From: Clostridia bacterium
GTDB lineage: Bacteria; Bacillota; Clostridia; RGIG8785
Assembly: GCA_045655245.1 (NCBI GenBank)
Contig: JAZOOX010000014.1
Coordinates: 5,056 to 69,055 of the forward strand
DNA length: 64,000 nucleotides
Direction: 5' to 3'
A model generated the notes under the pieces. It saw nothing but the letters and a program-made list of their open reading frames with translations. It had not been told where the DNA came from and did not search any database. The position numbers and the translations under genes were made by a program. The number at the start of each line of letters is the position of its first letter. The first letter of the stretch is position 1. Shown one piece after another: positions 4,065 to 8,596 of the stretch.

Positions 4065-4778
4065 ATGATTTATAAAAATATTCTACTTGGGCGGTTTATT
4101 GACCGCCCCAACCGATTTATTGCGCATATCGAGGTGGAAGGGCAGGTCGAGGTCTGCCACGTAAAGAACACGGGTCGTTGTCGGGAATTATTGACAGAAG
4201 GCGCGACCGTGTACGTTCAACGCGCTCAGAACCCCTTGCGCAAAACCAAGTTTGACCTGATTGCGGTAAAGAAGGGCAGTCGGCTAATCAATATGGACAG
4301 CCAGATTCCCAACCGTGTCTTTGCCGAGTGGGCGGAAGAAAGTGGCTACTTCGGCGAGGTGACATTGCGCCCCGAGACGACCTATCAGAATTCCCGTTTT
4401 GACTTTTATATCGAAGCAGGGAAACGGAAAATCTTTGTAGAGGTCAAGGGTGTGACCCTGGAAGAGGAGGGTGTGGTGCTCTTCCCCGATGCGCCTACCG
4501 AGCGTGGGGTCAAGCACCTGAACGAACTGGTTTCTGCCGTGTCCGAAGGGTACGAGGCGTACGTCTTTTTTATCATTCAAATGGAGGAATGCCGCTACTT
4601 CACCCCCAATCGCAAGACCCATCCCGCTTTTGCCGATGCACTTATAAAGGCACAGGCGGCAGGAGTCAAGGTCCTTGCGTTGAATTGTGCCGTCACCCCC
4701 GACAGCATCACGGCAAAAGATTTTGTGGAAATAAAAACAGGAGACGAATCGAATGGCACACATTTTTGCATCAATTAA
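4065..4778 (+). CDS. sfsA: sugar fermentation stimulation protein A family protein
   Basis: 237-aa protein with SfsA-like N-terminus (GRFIDRPNRF...) and conserved core. Confidence 0.8.
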   Translation: MIYKNILLGRFIDRPNRFIAHIEVEGQVEVCHVKNTGRCRELLTEGATVYVQRAQNPLRKTKFDLIAVKKGSRLINMDSQIPNRVFAEWAEESGYFGEVTLRPETTYQNSRFDFYIEAGKRKIFVEVKGVTLEEEGVVLFPDAPTERGVKHLNELVSAVSEGYEAYVFFIIQMEECRYFTPNRKTHPAFADALIKAQAAGVKVLALNCAVTPDSITAKDFVEIKTGDESNGTHFCIN

Positions 4779-6282
4779 AGAGTCGCTAACCTCGGTTTTG
4801 CCGATTGCGATTATCGTTTTAATTTTGTCGGTCACCTGCGTATCCTTGGATGCAGGTGTTTTGGTGCTGTTTTTATTCGGAACCATCTTATTGATTTTAG
4901 GGATGAGCTTTTTTACGGTAGGGTCGACCATTTCGATGGAGCCGTTGGGTGATGGTATCGGTAAATCACTGAACAAAAACGGGAAGATCCTGGTTCCGCT
5001 GTTGATTTGTTTTGTTCTTGGCTTTTTAATCACTGTGTCCGAGCCTGATCTGCAGGTGTTGGCAGAGCAGGTGCCCACTATTCCAAACGCCCTTTTGATT
5101 GTCTGTGTGGGCGTGGGGGTCGGCATTTTCTTAAGCATCACCCTGGTCCGAAACAAAAAGGAGGTTTCGCTGCGAACACTGCTTTTGGTGTTTTATATTT
5201 TGATTATCGGGTTGGCGTTTTTTGCTCCCGCTGAGTTTGTTCCCACTGCCTTTGACTCGGGCGGGGTGACCACCGGCCCGATCACTGTCCCCTTTATTAT
5301 GGCGCTGGGTGCAGGTCTTGCATCGGGGATGAAGAGGAAGCACACGGGTGAGCATAGTTTCGGTCTGGTTGCTTTGTGCAGTATCGGACCGATTTTGTCG
5401 GTACTGCTTTTAAGCATTTTCTTTCAGCCACACCCCAGTACCTCGTTGTACGAGCATATTGAGGTGTTGACCACCACCGACGCCTTCCGTCAGTTTTTGA
5501 TTGCTTTGCCCCATTATGCAGAAGAAATGCTGACGGCATTTTTACCCATCGTCGGGCTGTTTGTTTTGTTCCAGTTGATTACCCGACGGTTTCACACCCA
5601 CAATGTATTAAGAATGACGGTCGGTTTTGTTTATACCTATATCGGTTTGGTTTTGTTTTTAACGGGTGCCAATGTTGGGTTTATGCCTGCAGGACGGCTG
5701 ATTGGCGGGTCAATCGCAGGGAGTTCTTTCAGCGCGATGTTGATTCCAATTGGTATGGTGATGGGTTATTTCGTAGTTTCTGCCGAGCCTGCGGTCCACT
5801 CTTTAAAACGCCAGGTCAGCGAAATTACCAAGGGTGCAATTTCGCAAAAATCGGTTGCAGTTGCCCTTTCGGTTGGTGTATCGGTATCGGTGGGGATTTC
5901 GATGCTTCGGGTACTGACGGGGATTTCTGTGATGCCTTTTTTACTGTTTGGCTACGCCGTGTCTCTGATCATCAGTTTCTTTGTTCCCCATATTTATACG
6001 GGTATCGCGTTTGACTCGGGCGGTGTTGCCAGCGGTCCCATGAGCTCGCCCTTTATGCTGCCCTTTGCTATGGGCGCTTGTGAAGCCGTCGGCGGAAACG
6101 TAATGACCGACGCTTTCGGCATTGTGGCGATGATTGCTATGACGCCGTTGATTACCATTCAGGTCTTAGGGTTGTACGAACGGAAAAAGCATTTGGAACG
6201 CATCAAAAAACTCCATACTCAAATCGGTATGGTCAAAGACGATATTATTTTCTTTGACGGAGAGGGGGATTGGGATGAATAA
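4753..6282 (+). CDS. DUF1538-family polytopic membrane protein (two internal repeats)
   Basis: 509 aa, about 12 predicted TM helices, internal duplication (..FDSGGVTTGPITVPF.. and ..FDSGGVASGPMSSPF..); RBS AGGAGACG before ATG 4753. Confidence 0.7.
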   Translation: MAHIFASIKESLTSVLPIAIIVLILSVTCVSLDAGVLVLFLFGTILLILGMSFFTVGSTISMEPLGDGIGKSLNKNGKILVPLLICFVLGFLITVSEPDLQVLAEQVPTIPNALLIVCVGVGVGIFLSITLVRNKKEVSLRTLLLVFYILIIGLAFFAPAEFVPTAFDSGGVTTGPITVPFIMALGAGLASGMKRKHTGEHSFGLVALCSIGPILSVLLLSIFFQPHPSTSLYEHIEVLTTTDAFRQFLIALPHYAEEMLTAFLPIVGLFVLFQLITRRFHTHNVLRMTVGFVYTYIGLVLFLTGANVGFMPAGRLIGGSIAGSSFSAMLIPIGMVMGYFVVSAEPAVHSLKRQVSEITKGAISQKSVAVALSVGVSVSVGISMLRVLTGISVMPFLLFGYAVSLIISFFVPHIYTGIAFDSGGVASGPMSSPFMLPFAMGACEAVGGNVMTDAFGIVAMIAMTPLITIQVLGLYERKKHLERIKKLHTQIGMVKDDIIFFDGEGDWDE

Positions 6283-6943
6283 ACGGTTAATGGTGCTGTT
6301 GTCCATTGTCGAACGGGACAAAGGGCAGAACCTGATTAAAGTTTTGGAAACCAGAAACATCCCCATGAACTTCCAATGTGTCGGGATTGGCACTGCCCCC
6401 ACCGAGATGCTGGATATCTTCGGTTTGGGTACCAAGGATAAGGACATTGTTATCAGTCTTGCTACCGAGGTGGCGGTGAAGGATATGATGTCCGATTTCG
6501 GGGCAGTTTTTGAAAGCCATAAGAAGTTCGGCGGGTTGATGATTATTTTGTCCACCACCGCCGCAAGCCGCGTGCTGACAGAGTTGTTAACCCACCACAC
6601 CAACACCCCAGGGGAGAAAGGAACAGGCGCTATGAAAAACGAACATCATAACAATCTGATTATTGTTTCGATGAATGAAGGATACGCCGATAGTGTTATG
6701 CAGGTTGCGCGAAAGGCAGGTGCAACGGGGGGCACCGTTATTAAAGGTCGTCTTGCCGATGTAGAGCTGGTTGCGGAATTGGAGAATACGGTGATTGACG
6801 AGGAAAGGGAGATTTTGTTCATCCTTGCGCCTTTAAAGACAAGCAAGCAGATTATGGAGGACATCAACCGGGAGTTTGGGATTAACTCCAAAGCCAACGG
6901 CATCATCACGGCGGTGCCTACCGAAAAAGCGTATAAAATTTGA
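6275..6943 (+). CDS. tandem P-II-like (GlnB-like) domain protein
   Basis: Two P-II-like halves; ATG 6275 preceded by RBS GAGGGGGATTGGG; classic partner of DUF1538 membrane proteins. Confidence 0.7.
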   Translation: MNKRLMVLLSIVERDKGQNLIKVLETRNIPMNFQCVGIGTAPTEMLDIFGLGTKDKDIVISLATEVAVKDMMSDFGAVFESHKKFGGLMIILSTTAASRVLTELLTHHTNTPGEKGTGAMKNEHHNNLIIVSMNEGYADSVMQVARKAGATGGTVIKGRLADVELVAELENTVIDEEREILFILAPLKTSKQIMEDINREFGINSKANGIITAVPTEKAYKI

Positions 6944-6969
6944 AAAAGAGCCAGCCGGCTCTTTTTTTG
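6944..6969 (+). terminator. rho-independent terminator
   Basis: AAAAAGAGCCAGCCGGCTCTTTTTTT. Confidence 0.85.
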
Positions 6970-6998
6970 TTGACGACGGAAGAAGAATATGGTACAAT
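6970..6998 (+). promoter_or_regulatory. sigma-A type promoter for sRNA candidate 1
   Basis: TTGACG (6970-6975), 17-bp spacer, TACAAT (6993-6998). Confidence 0.65.
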
Positions 6999-7004
6999 AG
7001 TAAT

Positions 7005-7160
7005 TGCCAAACCAACTGAATAAAACGTAGTAAAAAGTAAGGAAAATAACAGTGAAAAAACGCTGGCTTGTTTCCTTAGTTTTGCTACGGTTAGGTTGGT
7101 TTGGCGATTGACCTGAGCCTGCGTTTTTCGGTGCGCGGCTTTGGTCGCGCACTTTTTTAT
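7005..7160 (+). ncRNA. candidate structured small RNA 1 (long imperfect hairpin plus intrinsic terminator)
   Basis: Nested helices GCCAAACCAAC/GTTGGTTTGGC, CGTAGTAAAA/TTTTGCTACG and TAAGGAAA/TTTCCTTA; ends in the terminator GTGCGCGGCTTTGGTCGCGCAC plus T6; no ORF. Confidence 0.45.
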
Positions 7161-7188
7161 TGACGAAAAAGTGCAACTGTGGTAAAAT
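7160..7188 (+). promoter_or_regulatory. sigma-A type promoter for sRNA candidate 2 / leader
   Basis: TTGACG (7160-7165), 17-bp spacer, TAAAAT (7183-7188). Confidence 0.65.
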
Positions 7189-7194
7189 ATTTTT

Positions 7195-7369
7195 GCGACA
7201 TGAATTTAATAGAGAGTTCGAGTTCAACCTATGGGAGACGTTTACCTTTTGGTAAAAACGTGTCCTCTACTTGAGCGTCCTCCTTAGGGTGAACTCTCTC
7301 TGAATTCGTGTCGCAACGATCAGAGTGACGCGTTTTTCGGTGCGTGGCTTTGGTCGCGCACTTTTTTAT
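7195..7369 (+). ncRNA. candidate structured small RNA 2 or cis-regulatory leader (multi-stem, same terminator as RNA 1)
   Basis: Closing helix GCGACATGAATT/AATTCGTGTCGC, inner helix AGAGAGTTC/GAACTCTCT, further hairpins; terminator GTGCGTGGCTTTGGTCGCGCAC plus T6 directly upstream of the RBS of a 45-aa ORF. Confidence 0.45.
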
Positions 7370-7385
7370 TGGGGGAGGGAGAAAA

Positions 7386-7523
7386 ATGGCAGACTACAAA
7401 AAGTTATACTATCAGTTATTCAACCGTATTACCGACCTGATTGAAGAATTGAAAAAATTTCAGATCGACGCAGAAGAGCAGTTTATGAGCGAAGAGGACG
7501 ACGAGGAAGAGGAAGCCGAATAG
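7386..7523 (+). CDS. hypothetical 45-aa acidic protein (below ORF-track cutoff)
   Basis: RBS GGGGGAGGGAG 5 nt before ATG 7386; MADYKKLYYQLFNRITDLIEELKKFQIDAEEQFMSEEDDEEEEAE; poly-acidic C-terminus. Confidence 0.35.
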   Translation: MADYKKLYYQLFNRITDLIEELKKFQIDAEEQFMSEEDDEEEEAE

Positions 7524-7606
7524 GGCCTCCTCTTTTAATTTGTGGTTGAATTGGGAAAAATGTTTTGGTAGAATAGAATCAAAAGACTTTATGGAGTTGA
7601 TGTAAC

Positions 7607-8596
7607 ATGTATCAAGCAGACGAAAAGCGCTATGAGAGAACCGCGTATCGCCGCTGCGGCAGAAGCGGGTTAAAACTTCCTGCAGTGTCCTTGGGGTTAT
7701 GGCATAATTTTGGCGACACAGGGGACGAGACGATGATGCGACAGATGCTGAAAAAGGCGTTTGATCACGGTATTACCCATTTTGATCTGGCAAACAATTA
7801 CGGTCCCGCGCCGGGCAGTGCCGAGCGGAACTTCGGCAGGATTTTGAAAGAGGAATTTTCGGTTTACCGTGACGAGCTGGTGATCAGCACCAAGGCGGGT
7901 TATTTGATGTGGGACGGCCCTTACGGGGACTTTGGCAGCCGCAAGTACCTGATTGCCAGTTTGGACCAGAGCTTGAAGCGGATGGGTCTGGAGTATGTGG
8001 ACATTTTTTACCACCATCGGATGGACCCCGACACGCCTTTGGAGGAGACGATGGGGGCGTTGGCACAGATTGTTCAGAGCGGCAAGGCTCTTTATGTGGG
8101 GCTGTCCAACTATGACGGGGAGACCATGAAAAAGGCGTCTGACATCTTAACGGAACTCCGTTGTCCTTTTGTGATCAACCAAAACCGTTACTCGATTTTA
8201 GACCGTAGTGCGGAGCAGAGCGGGATTTTATCTGCCGCCGTTCAGGAGGGCAAGGGGATGATCATTTTCAGTCCGCTGGCACAGGGGCTTTTAAGCGGTC
8301 GGTATTTAGACGGAATTCCTGCCGACAGCCGTGTTCGCACCGATGGGCGGTTTTTGAAAGAAGGGATTATCACTCCCGAAAAGGTGGCAATGCTCCGTCA
8401 GCTGTCCGATCTGGCGGCAGAGCGGGGGCAGACGTTGGCGCAGATGGCCCTTGCCTGGGTCTATGCCAAGGAGGGGGTCACCTCGGTTTTAATCGGAGCA
8501 TCGAGACCTGAGCAGATTTTGGAAAACCTAAAGATGCAGGAGAACATCGTCTTTACCGACGAAGAACTCCGCCGCATCGACGAGATTGTGAAATAA
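7607..8596 (+). CDS. aldo/keto reductase family oxidoreductase
   Basis: 329-aa AKR fold signature (..GITHFDLANNYGP..; ..LYVGLSNY..). Confidence 0.85.
   Translation: MYQADEKRYERTAYRRCGRSGLKLPAVSLGLWHNFGDTGDETMMRQMLKKAFDHGITHFDLANNYGPAPGSAERNFGRILKEEFSVYRDELVISTKAGYLMWDGPYGDFGSRKYLIASLDQSLKRMGLEYVDIFYHHRMDPDTPLEETMGALAQIVQSGKALYVGLSNYDGETMKKASDILTELRCPFVINQNRYSILDRSAEQSGILSAAVQEGKGMIIFSPLAQGLLSGRYLDGIPADSRVRTDGRFLKEGIITPEKVAMLRQLSDLAAERGQTLAQMALAWVYAKEGVTSVLIGASRPEQILENLKMQENIVFTDEELRRIDEIVK

Follow-up and report, generated by a model that had tools for sequence, protein, structure and literature searches.

We conclude, with a probability of roughly 0.7, that the two structured units upstream of a 45-codon open reading frame (the micro-ORF) are members of a single widespread family of leader RNAs, not yet catalogued, that act in cis as transcription attenuators. 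The units were found in a 64,000-nt (64-kb) stretch of Clostridia DNA, hereafter the window. The locus consists of two sigma-A-type promoters, two folded RNAs of about 160-180 nt, a 42-nt module that occurs twice, a Shine-Dalgarno (SD) sequence and the 45-aa ORF. The features are as follows, with positions counted in the window.

6943-6969, + strand: terminator hairpin of the preceding gene (AAAAAGAGCCAGCCGGCUCUUUUUUU; sequence, terminator scan and alignment A3)
6970-6998, + strand: unit 1 promoter, -35 box TTGACG, 17-nt spacer, TG, -10 box TACAAT (promoter scan)
7004-7160, + strand: unit 1 leader RNA, GCCAAAC-type P1 subgroup (match to covariance model R1, fold, inverted repeats)
7056-7068, + strand: internal strand of the predicted unit 1 helix P4 (AAAAACGCUGGCU), partner at 7116-7128 (inverted repeat I4)
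7110-7146, + strand: predicted unit 1 antiterminator hairpin with loop UUUUUCGG (-19.2 kcal/mol, z = -4.2)
7121-7162, + strand: first copy of the 42-nt conserved 3' module (direct-repeat search)
7130-7159, + strand: unit 1 intrinsic terminator, GGUGCGCGGC UUUG GUCGCGCACU and then U6 (terminator scan; -18.4 kcal/mol)
7160-7188, + strand: unit 2 promoter, -35 box TTGACG overlapping the end of the first module copy, TG, -10 box TAAAAT (promoter scan)
7163-7371, + strand: 209-nt insertion relative to loci L001 and L003 (alignment A3)
7193-7369, + strand: unit 2 leader RNA, canonical GCGACA-type (R1 match, fold, inverted repeats I2/I5)
7254-7268, + strand: internal strand of the predicted unit 2 helix P4 (AAAAACGUGUCCUCU), partner at 7322-7337 (AGAGUGACGCGUUUUU; read from the sequence)
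7318-7355, + strand: predicted unit 2 antiterminator hairpin (-18.9 kcal/mol, z = -4.6)
7339-7368, + strand: unit 2 intrinsic terminator with U tract (terminator scan)
7371-7381, + strand: SD sequence of the micro-ORF (GGGGGAGGGAG; read from the sequence)
7386-7523, + strand: micro-ORF, 45 aa, of a conserved small-protein family (98 homologous clusters)
about 7499-7541, + strand: terminator-like hairpin overlapping the micro-ORF stop codon (-20.2 kcal/mol)
7546-7574, + strand: promoter-like site of the aldo/keto reductase (AKR) gene itself, TTGAAT, 17-nt spacer, TAGAAT, with TG (promoter scan)

An earlier note had read the two units as candidate promoter-to-terminator structured RNAs, and the promoters, terminators and folds, all on the + strand, agree with this. 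Both promoters have the boxes and 17-nt spacers given there, and each scored 10/12 with a TG-extended -10; in the region as a whole, five promoter-like sites were seen as compared to 1.7 expected in shuffled sequence. The folding energy was -69.2 kcal/mol for unit 1 (7003-7162, z = -7.8) and -78.7 kcal/mol for unit 2 (7193-7371, z = -8.6), and for each unit none of 200 shuffled sequences was as stable. The intrinsic terminators (7130-7153 and 7339-7362) each contain 10 pairs followed by a T run, and the 45-aa ORF reads as described. The repeated module is present at 7121-7162 and 7330-7371 with a single mismatch, but it is 42 nt long rather than 45; no further copy was found within the window and none is expected by chance. 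It had been taken for a shared terminator, and a duplicated terminator is indeed part of it, but the module is really the conserved 3' switching module of the entire family. The T run of terminator 2 ends at 7368, the SD sequence begins at 7371 and the ATG lies at 7386, so the gap between terminator and ribosome-binding site is about 2-3 nt, not the 14 nt reported before.

The covariance model R1 was built from 29 canonical units, with unit 2 in the seed and unit 1 outside it. As a seed member, unit 2 scored 105.9 bits (E = 1e-21), and unit 1 was recovered with 76.3 bits (E = 3.6e-15). The earlier note treated the units as unlike, one 6S-like and the other a possible riboswitch with several helices; they are paralogues of one family, and a search of the 64-kb window with R1 gave only these two copies even with the filters off. 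For the whole window, no match at the gathering score was obtained with Rfam 15, whose families include 6S (RF00013), SAM, T-box, c-di-AMP/GMP, SRP and tmRNA. The matches at E <= 10 for positions 6900-7650 were at chance level, and 6S, antitoxin, SAM, T-box and similar families were not among them. Neither unit is 6S-like. Rfam searches of 14 canonical loci gave nothing relevant, and the best canonical unit had no match at E <= 1; matches named MIR9471 and MicX were rejected as reflecting merely a long hairpin followed by a terminator. A tRNA/tmRNA search found none. In the papers searched, no match was found to the module sequence or to the small-protein motif, and a keyword search returned nothing specific to such a leader family, although the unnamed candidates of one study (PMC8040213) could include it.

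A DNA pattern for the 3' module (GCGTTTTTCGGTGCG-N10-16-CGCACTTTTT) matched at least 120 contigs from metagenomes and at least 120 from species genomes of gut and rumen Clostridia, with about 117 different Clostridia assemblies among the genome matches listed. With R1, 108 matches were identified in 100 genome loci and 123 in 100 metagenome loci, about 20 of the latter being weak opposite-strand echoes (29-35 bits) of the palindromic P1/P2. Most family members were gathered with the exact 3' pattern, so the conservation of the module is overstated.

All family members share one plan, in which a promoter belonging to the unit is followed by the closing helix P1, which covaries, by P2, which varies, and by P3, a small hairpin. 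In unit 1, P1 is formed by 7002-7018 and 7093-7109 (scan of inverted repeat I1/I3, and fold; the scan gave 7002-7016 with 7095-7109 for the closing helix), P2 by about 7026-7045 and 7071-7091, and the local hairpin P3 by CAGUG (7050-7054) and CGCUG (7061-7065). The closing helix noticed before in unit 2 is present as P1 (7193-7206 with 7303-7316, 14 nt, 93% complementarity), with an extension at 7206-7219 and 7291-7304, and P3 is formed by 7238-7246 and 7251-7261. Covariation in homologous regions had been proposed as a check, and P1 as well as three competing pairings, described below, were found to covary. In alignment A1, 92.3% of the cells were paired as compared to 82.6% in shuffles, 23 pairs changed on both sides, and the observed pairing values were reached by none of 500 shuffles. 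In alignment A2, which was fitted to the covariance model, 94.0% were paired and 31 of 39 pairs changed on both sides; the covariation score was 0.372, as compared to 0.137 when shuffled and at most 0.056 with slid partners. Mismatches in P1 were far more often G.U (84) than A.C (17; p = 8e-12, with the register set by Watson-Crick pairs only), so that selection acts on the + strand RNA. The core of P1 is conserved and the junction J1/2 carries a conserved AAUA, while P2 is free in sequence and length. Conserved unpaired nucleotides are few across the family.

The intrinsic terminator and the antiterminator are mutually exclusive and both are supported by covariation. In all, three mutually exclusive pairings covary: the internal strand with the tail X (P4), the tail with the 5' arm of the terminator (the antiterminator), and the terminator. 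The second half of P4 and the antiterminator were assessed by partner-swap and shuffle tests, since bulges shift the register of individual columns. The native tail outperformed swapped tails in pairing with the internal strand (130 of 173 units; p = 1.5e-15) and with the top of the terminator (149 of 173; p = 4e-21). The mean energy of the antiterminator was -12.7 kcal/mol, as compared to -8.0 kcal/mol with a shuffled tail, and the native tail was better in 198/202 units; the family means for the terminator and the P4 duplex were -17.1 and -18.0 kcal/mol, respectively. In the window, the antiterminators (-19.2 and -18.9 kcal/mol) compare with -18.4 kcal/mol for the terminator, and the minimum free energy fold of full-length unit 2 contained the antiterminator in preference to the terminator. 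In unit 1, the antiterminator pairs the tail X and GCG with the 5' arm, the loop and the first 3'-arm bases of the terminator, and P4 covaries in L003 (GGG with CCC). Full compensatory changes were also observed in diverged copies, namely in L197 and L168 (AAAAAUAC with GUAUUUUU) and in L200 (AAAAGGUGUUUCC with GGAACACUUUUU, and GAAGGAAC with GUUCCUUC).

These pairings suggest the following switch, in which start sites, termination and read-through are predictions. Transcription would start from the unit's own sigma-A promoter at the foot of the long closing helix P1, which encloses the variable P2 and the small hairpin P3, whose 3' arm (AAAAACGC...) runs into a short single strand. After P1 comes the tail X, then GCGUUUUUC, and then the intrinsic terminator. 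X and the adjoining GCGUUUUU could pair back with the internal strand to form P4, displacing the look-alike 5' arm of P3, or could pair forward with the 5' arm and loop of the terminator to form an antiterminator roughly as stable as the terminator. Once P4 is in place, the terminator would form and the RNA would end as a species of about 160-180 nt; if P4 is prevented, the antiterminator would form first and the polymerase would read into the ORF, which starts about 20-30 nt further on. The analysis establishes family membership, the covarying helices, the placement of promoters and ORFs, and the insertion described below; that termination is regulated, and which of the two states is the default, we infer. 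It counts against the attenuator reading that the predicted P4 is a pseudoknot across P1 and P2. Only 5-7 nt separate the foot of P1 from X, so for P4 to form, either P1 would have to open or P2 would have to bend back onto it. A leader peptide ending at a conserved UGG-UAA was also considered and rejected, an in-frame ATG being present in only 21 of 188 units.

The position of the units relative to promoters and genes is regular. A -10 box was located 1-12 nt ahead of P1 in 193 of 202 units (145 of these with TG), and 237 of 243 units were followed by an ORF with an SD sequence on the same strand, at a median distance of 26 nt and within 60 nt in 188 cases. The products of the 237 downstream ORFs form 130 unrelated clusters, which include BspA-type LRR proteins, Wzy_C proteins, lipoproteins, zinc-ribbon proteins, ABC ATPases and many of no known kind.

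We also compared the window to L001 and L003 in alignment A3. The hairpin at 6943-6969 marks the 5' boundary of a conserved block common to all three, and the unit 1 promoter is retained in both relatives. In these, unit 1 directly precedes the ORF, whereas in the window unit 2 intervenes as a 209-nt insertion that holds its promoter, its body and the second copy of the module; the micro-ORF starts 19 nt after this module. We take unit 1 to be the leader that the micro-ORF had ancestrally, and unit 2 to be a second family member, complete with a promoter of its own, that was inserted by recombination in the conserved 3' module. For the micro-ORF to be expressed, the polymerase would then have to pass terminator 2, and after starting at promoter 1 it would have to pass terminator 1 as well. 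Over the first 20 or so codons of the micro-ORF, all differences from L001 and L003 were at synonymous sites, and the protein is under purifying selection.

Known attenuators of Bacillota with terminator, antiterminator and anti-antiterminator (pyr/PyrR, trp/TRAP, T-box, transcriptional riboswitches) likewise have a leader between promoter and ORF, with a terminator a few tens of nucleotides before the start, an antiterminator that uses the 5' arm of the terminator and an upstream strand that captures the 5' half of the antiterminator. The new family differs from them in that no sequence or model match was found, the promoter lies within the conserved cassette and the gene set has no common pathway. 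In addition, the capturing strand is placed at the tip of a rod of about 30 bp, so that the anti-antiterminator would be a pseudoknot, and P3 is formed by a duplicate of the 3' strand (GCGUUUUU), which amounts to a strand-displacement design.

Judging by the gene set, the effector is more likely to be a global signal that acts in trans than a metabolite of one pathway. In a classical metabolite or second-messenger riboswitch, P1-P2-P3 would be the aptamer and a ligand would decide between P3 and P4. This would be a special case of the attenuator reading with a small-molecule effector, for example a cyclic dinucleotide as a global signal, and we regard it as somewhat unlikely. The expression platform with its three competing helices is riboswitch-like, the P1 core and the AAUA of J1/2 are conserved, and the units occur at many loci in many species ahead of surface and envelope genes. 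The c-di-GMP-I and c-di-GMP-II riboswitches of Clostridia, which mostly work through termination, precede genes for surface proteins and adhesins as well as genes of unknown function. The new family resembles their regulons in this respect, but it differs in having neither an Rfam match, to these or to any other riboswitch, nor a recognisable conserved aptamer core. Also, P2 varies in sequence and length, one subgroup carries an extra 60 nt or so, most of the invariant positions are in the switching helices and not in the junctions, and no metabolic theme was detected among the 130 downstream protein clusters. The conserved ligand core and coherent gene set of a metabolite riboswitch were consequently not found, and the few conserved unpaired nucleotides together with the incoherent gene set offer no handle on a ligand.

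Alternatively, the switch could be set by a protein, and the tightly linked small protein is one candidate factor. A helical protein of 45-55 aa, encoded behind one leader per genome, would then be the trans-acting factor and would regulate its own synthesis, as is conceivable by analogy with pyrR: PyrR is encoded behind the first pyr attenuator, and here too a small conserved protein, a possible factor, is encoded directly behind one leader. In 9 of 11 protein-first lineages, an R1 match ended 13-21 nt upstream of the start codon, and leader and small ORF remain together amid changing gene neighbours (TrmE, PPDK/CotH, histidine kinase, trypsin/MscS, DUF362, resolvase, Wzy_C, M24 peptidase). 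These leaders carry module variants beyond the reach of the DNA pattern, and a Pyramidobacter MAG as well as records under the name Selenomonas ruminantium are among the lineages. Within the loci obtained with the pattern, the small ORF was found only directly after a unit. The purifying selection and a confident model of the protein as a single long helix (mean pLDDT 90.6) are in line with such a role. Against it, the protein had no match in Pfam or NCBIfam, and with that no known RNA-binding or polymerase-binding domain, two homologues (L004 and L255) are encoded without a leader, and the linkage could merely mean that the gene is an old, vertically inherited target. On balance, we consider a protein-set switch unlikely.

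It is improbable that the units are independent genes for trans-acting small RNAs (6S-like, antitoxin-like or regulatory) with incidental ORFs downstream. In favour of this, a strong promoter and a strong terminator belong to every unit, and tandem units, each started from a separate promoter, are present in the window and in about 6-7% of the loci (L011, L152, L168, L175, L178, L197, L209). After termination, the RNA would form a stable rod that exposes a strand at its apex. In its long imperfect rod-like hairpin and its size, unit 1 is similar to 6S RNA (RF00013), but it has no central bubble, it has its own terminator with an ORF after it, and it is one of two paralogues. The orientation and spacing of the ORFs described above are non-random, with only the SD sequence in between, and a plain small RNA would not need an antiterminator that overlaps and covaries with the terminator. 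Furthermore, no 6S or other small RNA model matched and a toxin-like ORF is absent. In the rep leaders of pT181 and pIP501, a loop strand of the countertranscript pairs with the nascent leader and blocks the anti-terminating pairing, so that the terminator forms. In the new family, the complementary strand is in the same transcript, and action in trans between family members is only conceivable.

A DNA inversion switch is rejected as the main explanation because of the essentially uniform orientation of the assembled units and the G.U bias in P1, and we rate it as very improbable. In such a switch, the arms of P1 would be inverted repeats, the promoter would lie outside and the orientation of the interior would set termination. 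The layout parallels that of cwpV, where a 195-bp segment between promoter and ORF is bounded by inverted repeats and an intrinsic terminator forms in only one of the two orientations (PMC2784873). Like the cwpV and flgB switches of Clostridioides difficile (PMC2784873, PMC5386303), the units have a promoter before inverted repeats that flank a leader of about 100-200 bp, a terminator that depends on pairing of the interior, and cell-surface proteins among their targets. The P1 core sequence is conserved, flipping the interior weakens the P4 duplex (from -17.3 to -7.8 kcal/mol in unit 1 and from -19.6 to -10.8 kcal/mol in unit 2), one locus (L116) has a flipped interior, and small tyrosine or serine recombinases were seen near some units. 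However, 241 of 242 units had the same orientation, a count from assemblies, which are blind to minority orientations, and L116 has no outside promoter, lies in an atypical mirrored context and looks like the product of a rearrangement that involved two divergent units. The behaviour of the repeats is that of an RNA helix: the mismatches in P1 are not symmetric, as they would be for repeats at the DNA level, and P2, P3, P4 and the antiterminator covary as RNA helices. No homologue of the recombinases was found in the 64-kb window.

A selfish or neutral MITE-like promoter-terminator cassette with no regulatory role is hardly credible and was rejected on account of the orientation bias relative to genes and the extensive covariation with its G.U bias, even though the family has terminal inverted repeats, is found in many genomes, has copies within mobile elements (and five in viral contigs) and shows a presence/absence polymorphism for unit 2 with a 42-nt direct repeat at the flanks; this repeat is the family's own 3' module rather than a target-site duplication, only two copies are present in the 64-kb window, and no transposase is associated with them.

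With the attenuator reading as a basis, a wider interpretation is possible and is put forward tentatively. The family may represent a new and widespread class of RNA switch, a promoter-leader cassette with a toehold/strand-displacement pseudoknot that responds to a global signal, distributed from gut Clostridia to Negativicutes and possibly Synergistota. The signal might be a small molecule or the helical protein of 45-55 aa, in which case the protein would be an attenuation factor of a new type, and the regulon would comprise surface and accessory genes. If the reading is right, a regulatory RNA that is absent from the catalogues is common to hundreds of species of Clostridia in gut and rumen, where it fronts genes for LRR proteins of adhesin-like type, O-antigen-ligase-like proteins and lipoproteins, and for many small proteins of unknown function. 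This would define a regulon and a signal that at present escape notice in gut bacteria that are among the hardest to work with. Research on riboswitches and attenuation would gain a large orphan class whose switching design is clear and can be tested, and a conserved family of proteins of about 50 residues would gain its first functional context.

The earlier note had suggested that unit 2 could be a riboswitch or attenuator for the micro-ORF and possibly for the AKR gene downstream. For the micro-ORF, regulation by an attenuator-type leader remains the preferred interpretation, but leader control of the AKR gene is unlikely, because a terminator-like hairpin (7499-7541) and a promoter-like site (7546-7574) are located between the micro-ORF and this gene. 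The same arrangement was observed in L001 and L003, the hairpin having an energy of -20.9 kcal/mol in L001, and the promoter-like site, which is outside the element, sets its 3' boundary. As for tandem units, the second promoter bypasses the first switch, an arrangement that suits independent RNA genes and leaders equally well.

The contents of the interval 6943-7607 as described in the earlier note were borne out, with promoters, folded stretches, a repeat with a terminator, a Shine-Dalgarno sequence and an ORF all present between the upstream gene and the aldo/keto reductase (AKR) gene. The features are:

6254-6943, upstream gene
6970-6998 and 7160-7188, promoter-like sites with extended -10 boxes
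7004-7160 (+), unit 1, predicted leader RNA
7193-7369 (+), unit 2, predicted leader RNA
7056-7068 with 7116-7128, strands of the predicted helix P4 in unit 1
7254-7268 with 7322-7337, strands of the predicted helix P4 in unit 2
7121-7162 and 7330-7371, direct repeat of 42 nt with one mismatch, which includes the intrinsic terminator
7386-7523, 45-aa ORF (micro-ORF) preceded by a strong Shine-Dalgarno sequence
~7499-7541, terminator-like hairpin at the end of the micro-ORF
7607-8596, AKR gene, best name L-glyceraldehyde-3-phosphate reductase (NF007388, 449 bits)

Folding exceeded that of shuffled controls in unit 1 (z = -7.8) as well as in unit 2 (z = -8.6). No further copies of the 42-nt repeat were found across the window, and Rfam 15 gave no match to the window at the gathering score; at E <= 10, matches to 6900-7650 did not rise above chance level. 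The upstream gene, designated P-II in the earlier note, matched no model of Pfam or NCBIfam at the thresholds applied and is preceded by a gene for a DUF1538 membrane protein (4753-6282).

Relatives were collected with a DNA pattern for a relaxed version of the conserved 3' module, GCGTTTTTCGGTGCG-N10-16-CGCACTTTTT, with at least 120 matching contigs among the metagenomes and at least 120 among species-representative genomes; 2.9 million viral contigs contained just 5 matches. The genome matches listed derive from about 117 distinct assemblies, all Clostridia from animal guts and rumen, and include Oscillospiraceae, Acutalibacteraceae, Christensenellaceae, Ruminococcus, Faecousia, Dysosmobacter, Lachnospiraceae and Butyrivibrio crossotus. 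The family is undescribed in the sense that neither Rfam 15 nor the literature text searched contains it, the unnamed candidate lists of comparative studies (PMC8040213) falling outside that search. At a group of related loci (L015, L026, L048, L075, L097, L100, L103, L113, L115, L123, L140) the unit lies within an apparent integrative element, with a tyrosine integrase of ~440 aa 2-3 kb upstream and, encoded on the opposite strand, a tyrosine recombinase of 188-197 aa at 1.2-1.7 kb downstream. At another locus, a Gut-1 RNA (L046 1905-1980; RF01706, 54.3 bits, above the gathering score) is located between two family units in a region rich in GTGATGT-type repeats.

In 193 of the 202 distinct upstream regions, the element is preceded by a predicted promoter (TTGnnn-17-TGnTAnnnT) at a distance of 1-12 nt, in most cases 4-5 nt. 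The closing helix P1 contains 8-21 contiguous pairs with a conserved core (UGC[G/C/U]A[C/A]ACAA with UUGU[G/U]U[C/G/A]GCA), AAUA sits in an internal loop, and helix P2 is variable in both sequence and length, one subgroup being ~60 nt longer. P3 is a small hairpin composed of GCGUUUUUA, a loop ending in GG, and UAAAAACGC; the single strand AGGCUC follows directly, after which P2' and P1' close the structure. The tail X (AGCAAUC-GGAGCU) is followed by GCGUUUUUC and the GC-rich terminator. Unit 2 is classified as a canonical member and unit 1 as belonging to the GCCAAAC-type P1 subgroup. P3 of unit 1 is likewise small but differs (CAGUG with CGCUG); even so, it overlaps the internal strand of P4, and it covaries in the related locus L003 (CUGUG with CGCAG). 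Units of the longer subgroup (type B, e.g., L098 831-1046) carry a conserved insert, UAUGGGAUAAUUAUACCCUUUUUU, which reads GGGTATAATTATCCC on the reverse strand, a perfect -10 hexamer.

A covariance model of the family (R1) was built from a seed alignment of 29 canonical units, with unit 1 outside the seed. Unit 2 scored 105.9 bits and unit 1 76.3 bits (E = 3.6e-15), and no copy beyond these two was identified by R1 in the whole 64 kb, also with filters off. In the seed alignment, 92.3% of the cells were paired, as compared to 82.6% in shuffles, and 23 pairs had changed on both sides. An alignment of 108 R1 matches from genome loci, which was fitted to R1 and mostly gathered via the module so that its figures are biased towards the structure, had 94.0% paired cells, changes on both sides in 31 of 39 pairs and a covariation score of 0.372 versus 0.137 when shuffled and no more than 0.056 with slid partners. 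Most of the signal nevertheless came from P1 and P2, which the search pattern does not cover. Mismatches in P1 were G.U in 84 cases versus A.C in 17 (p = 8e-12; register picked on Watson-Crick pairs only), indicating that this helix is under selection in the + strand RNA.

Three pairings would compete in such a leader, a probable transcription attenuator. P4 would form between the internal strand AAAAACGC-AGGCUC and X plus GCGUUUUU. The antiterminator would join X plus (A/U)GCG to UGCG together with the upper part of the terminator 5' arm and the terminator loop, so that UUUUUCGG remains as its own loop; the third is the terminator itself. Compared with tails exchanged among members, native tails gave better pairing in 130 of 173 units (p = 1.5e-15) for the internal strand and in 149 of 173 (p = 4e-21) for the terminator top. 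The antiterminator hairpin had a mean energy of -12.7 kcal/mol versus -8.0 with shuffled tails (native better in 198 of 202 units), and mean predicted energies were -17.1 for the terminators and -18.0 kcal/mol for the P4 duplexes. The antiterminators in the window (-19.2 and -18.9 kcal/mol) are on par with the terminator (-18.4), and were picked in the full-length MFE folds of both units. Complete compensatory changes were observed in copies outside the pattern selection, at L197 and L168 (AAAAAUAC with GUAUUUUU) and at L200 (AAAAGGUGUUUCC with GGAACACUUUUU, GAAGGAAC with GUUCCUUC). The P3 5' arm is identical in sequence to the P4 3' strand and AGGCUC is unpaired beside P3, so the design looks like toehold-mediated strand displacement: X would dock on AGGCUC, and we infer that GCGUUUUU would then displace the P3 5' arm. 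P4 would be a pseudoknot, and since just 5-7 nt link P1 and X, it requires that the P1-P2 rod of ~30 bp folds back or that P1 opens. In "minimal" versions at two loci (L085 ~572-694 and L154), the promoter abuts the tail and terminator module without P1-P3, and the antiterminator would be unopposed.

An attractive alternative is a DNA inversion switch as in cwpV (PMC2784873), the layout of which matches that of the family units; flipping the interior would, as computed, cost P4 ~9 kcal/mol in both window units. However, 241 of 242 units have a single orientation, and the G.U bias in P1 favours an RNA helix. The sole exception (L116 1-1353, minus strand shown) has a flipped interior. Tail, terminator module, RBS and gene are mirrored on either side of it and no promoter is present outside, which gives it the look of a product of rearrangement between two divergent units; alternatively, it may be a rare two-way switch. 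Of its two flanking genes, one encodes a Cys-rich small protein and the other a protein of no known kind.

A same-strand ORF with a Shine-Dalgarno sequence was found downstream of 237 of the 243 units with sufficient downstream sequence, at a median of 26 nt from the module end (<=60 nt in 188). The family thus appears to be cis-acting, the space between module and ORF being too short for another promoter. Neither this spacing nor the covariation of the antiterminator fits easily with free-standing sRNAs. A leader peptide was excluded, as was a MITE-like repeat by the orientation bias and covariation. The earlier note had raised the possibility that unit 2 controls the AKR gene, but this gene has a promoter-like site of its own which, together with the hairpin that ends the micro-ORF, intervenes, so it probably lies outside the switch.

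The downstream products form 130 clusters, including BspA-type LRR proteins (21), Wzy_C O-antigen-ligase-like proteins (10), a Cys-rich small protein (10), NPCBM lipoproteins, ABC ATPases, DUF4234+SHOCT membrane proteins, AbrB/MazE-like and zinc-ribbon proteins and many unknowns. No common pathway is apparent among these clusters, which makes a pathway metabolite unlikely as effector and favours a global signal or a dedicated factor. The Cys-rich small protein (...VCLGNGEQGFECCCDECDYYLLCFPE...), which recurs at ~10 loci (e.g., L025, L043, L053, L074, L212, L116), has no Pfam match; it may bind metal or be a modified peptide.

The micro-ORF is a genuine ORF; in the first ~20 codons, every codon change relative to two of its closest homologues (L001 and L003) is synonymous. 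A profile search placed it in a conserved family of helical proteins 45-55 aa long, which comprises 98 clusters and splits into two subfamilies, with the motif M-x-D-Y-x-x-L-Y ... A-E-E-x-Y (window 7386-7523; L250-L264). No Pfam or NCBIfam model covers this family, and its genes nearly always follow the leader. The micro-protein was modeled as a single long helix (mean pLDDT 90.6). In a search that started from the protein, an R1 match ended 13-21 nt 5' of the start codon in 9 of 11 lineages, among them the L001-L003 lineage (18 nt); the labels of some lineages are Selenomonas ruminantium and a Pyramidobacter MAG. Their leaders bear module variants beyond the reach of the DNA pattern (e.g., ...CGTGGCGCGG...), and the neighbouring genes are unlike in each. 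Among the pattern-derived loci, the small protein was seen only immediately behind a unit (L008 and L061). Retention of the leader next to changing neighbours argues that leader and small gene have long been co-inherited, in which case the protein may be an ancient target or else a candidate factor for the leader family as a whole, an arrangement that resembles pyrR behind its own attenuator.

The closest homologues (L001 to L003) have one unit, homologous to unit 1, immediately 5' of the ORF, and share with the window the promoter and the upstream terminator, as well as the terminator behind the ORF and the promoter of the AKR gene, so that unit 2 and the second module copy amount to a 209-nt insertion (7163-7371). 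The terminator top of unit 2 is GGCUUUGGUC, as in the unit 1 lineage, rather than the usual GGCUUCGGCU, which suggests recombination or gene conversion inside the conserved module. Transcripts from promoter 1 would have to pass terminator 1, traverse unit 2 and then pass terminator 2, whereas those from promoter 2 would have terminator 2 alone to pass. Tandem units with separate promoters occur at ~6-7% of loci. P2 of unit 1 (7019-7092) and its counterparts in L001 (1352-1436) and L003 (~741-816) have wholly different sequences, all of which pair, despite flanks that are ~90% identical, suggesting either exchange of the interior with a paralogue or template-switch correction of both arms.
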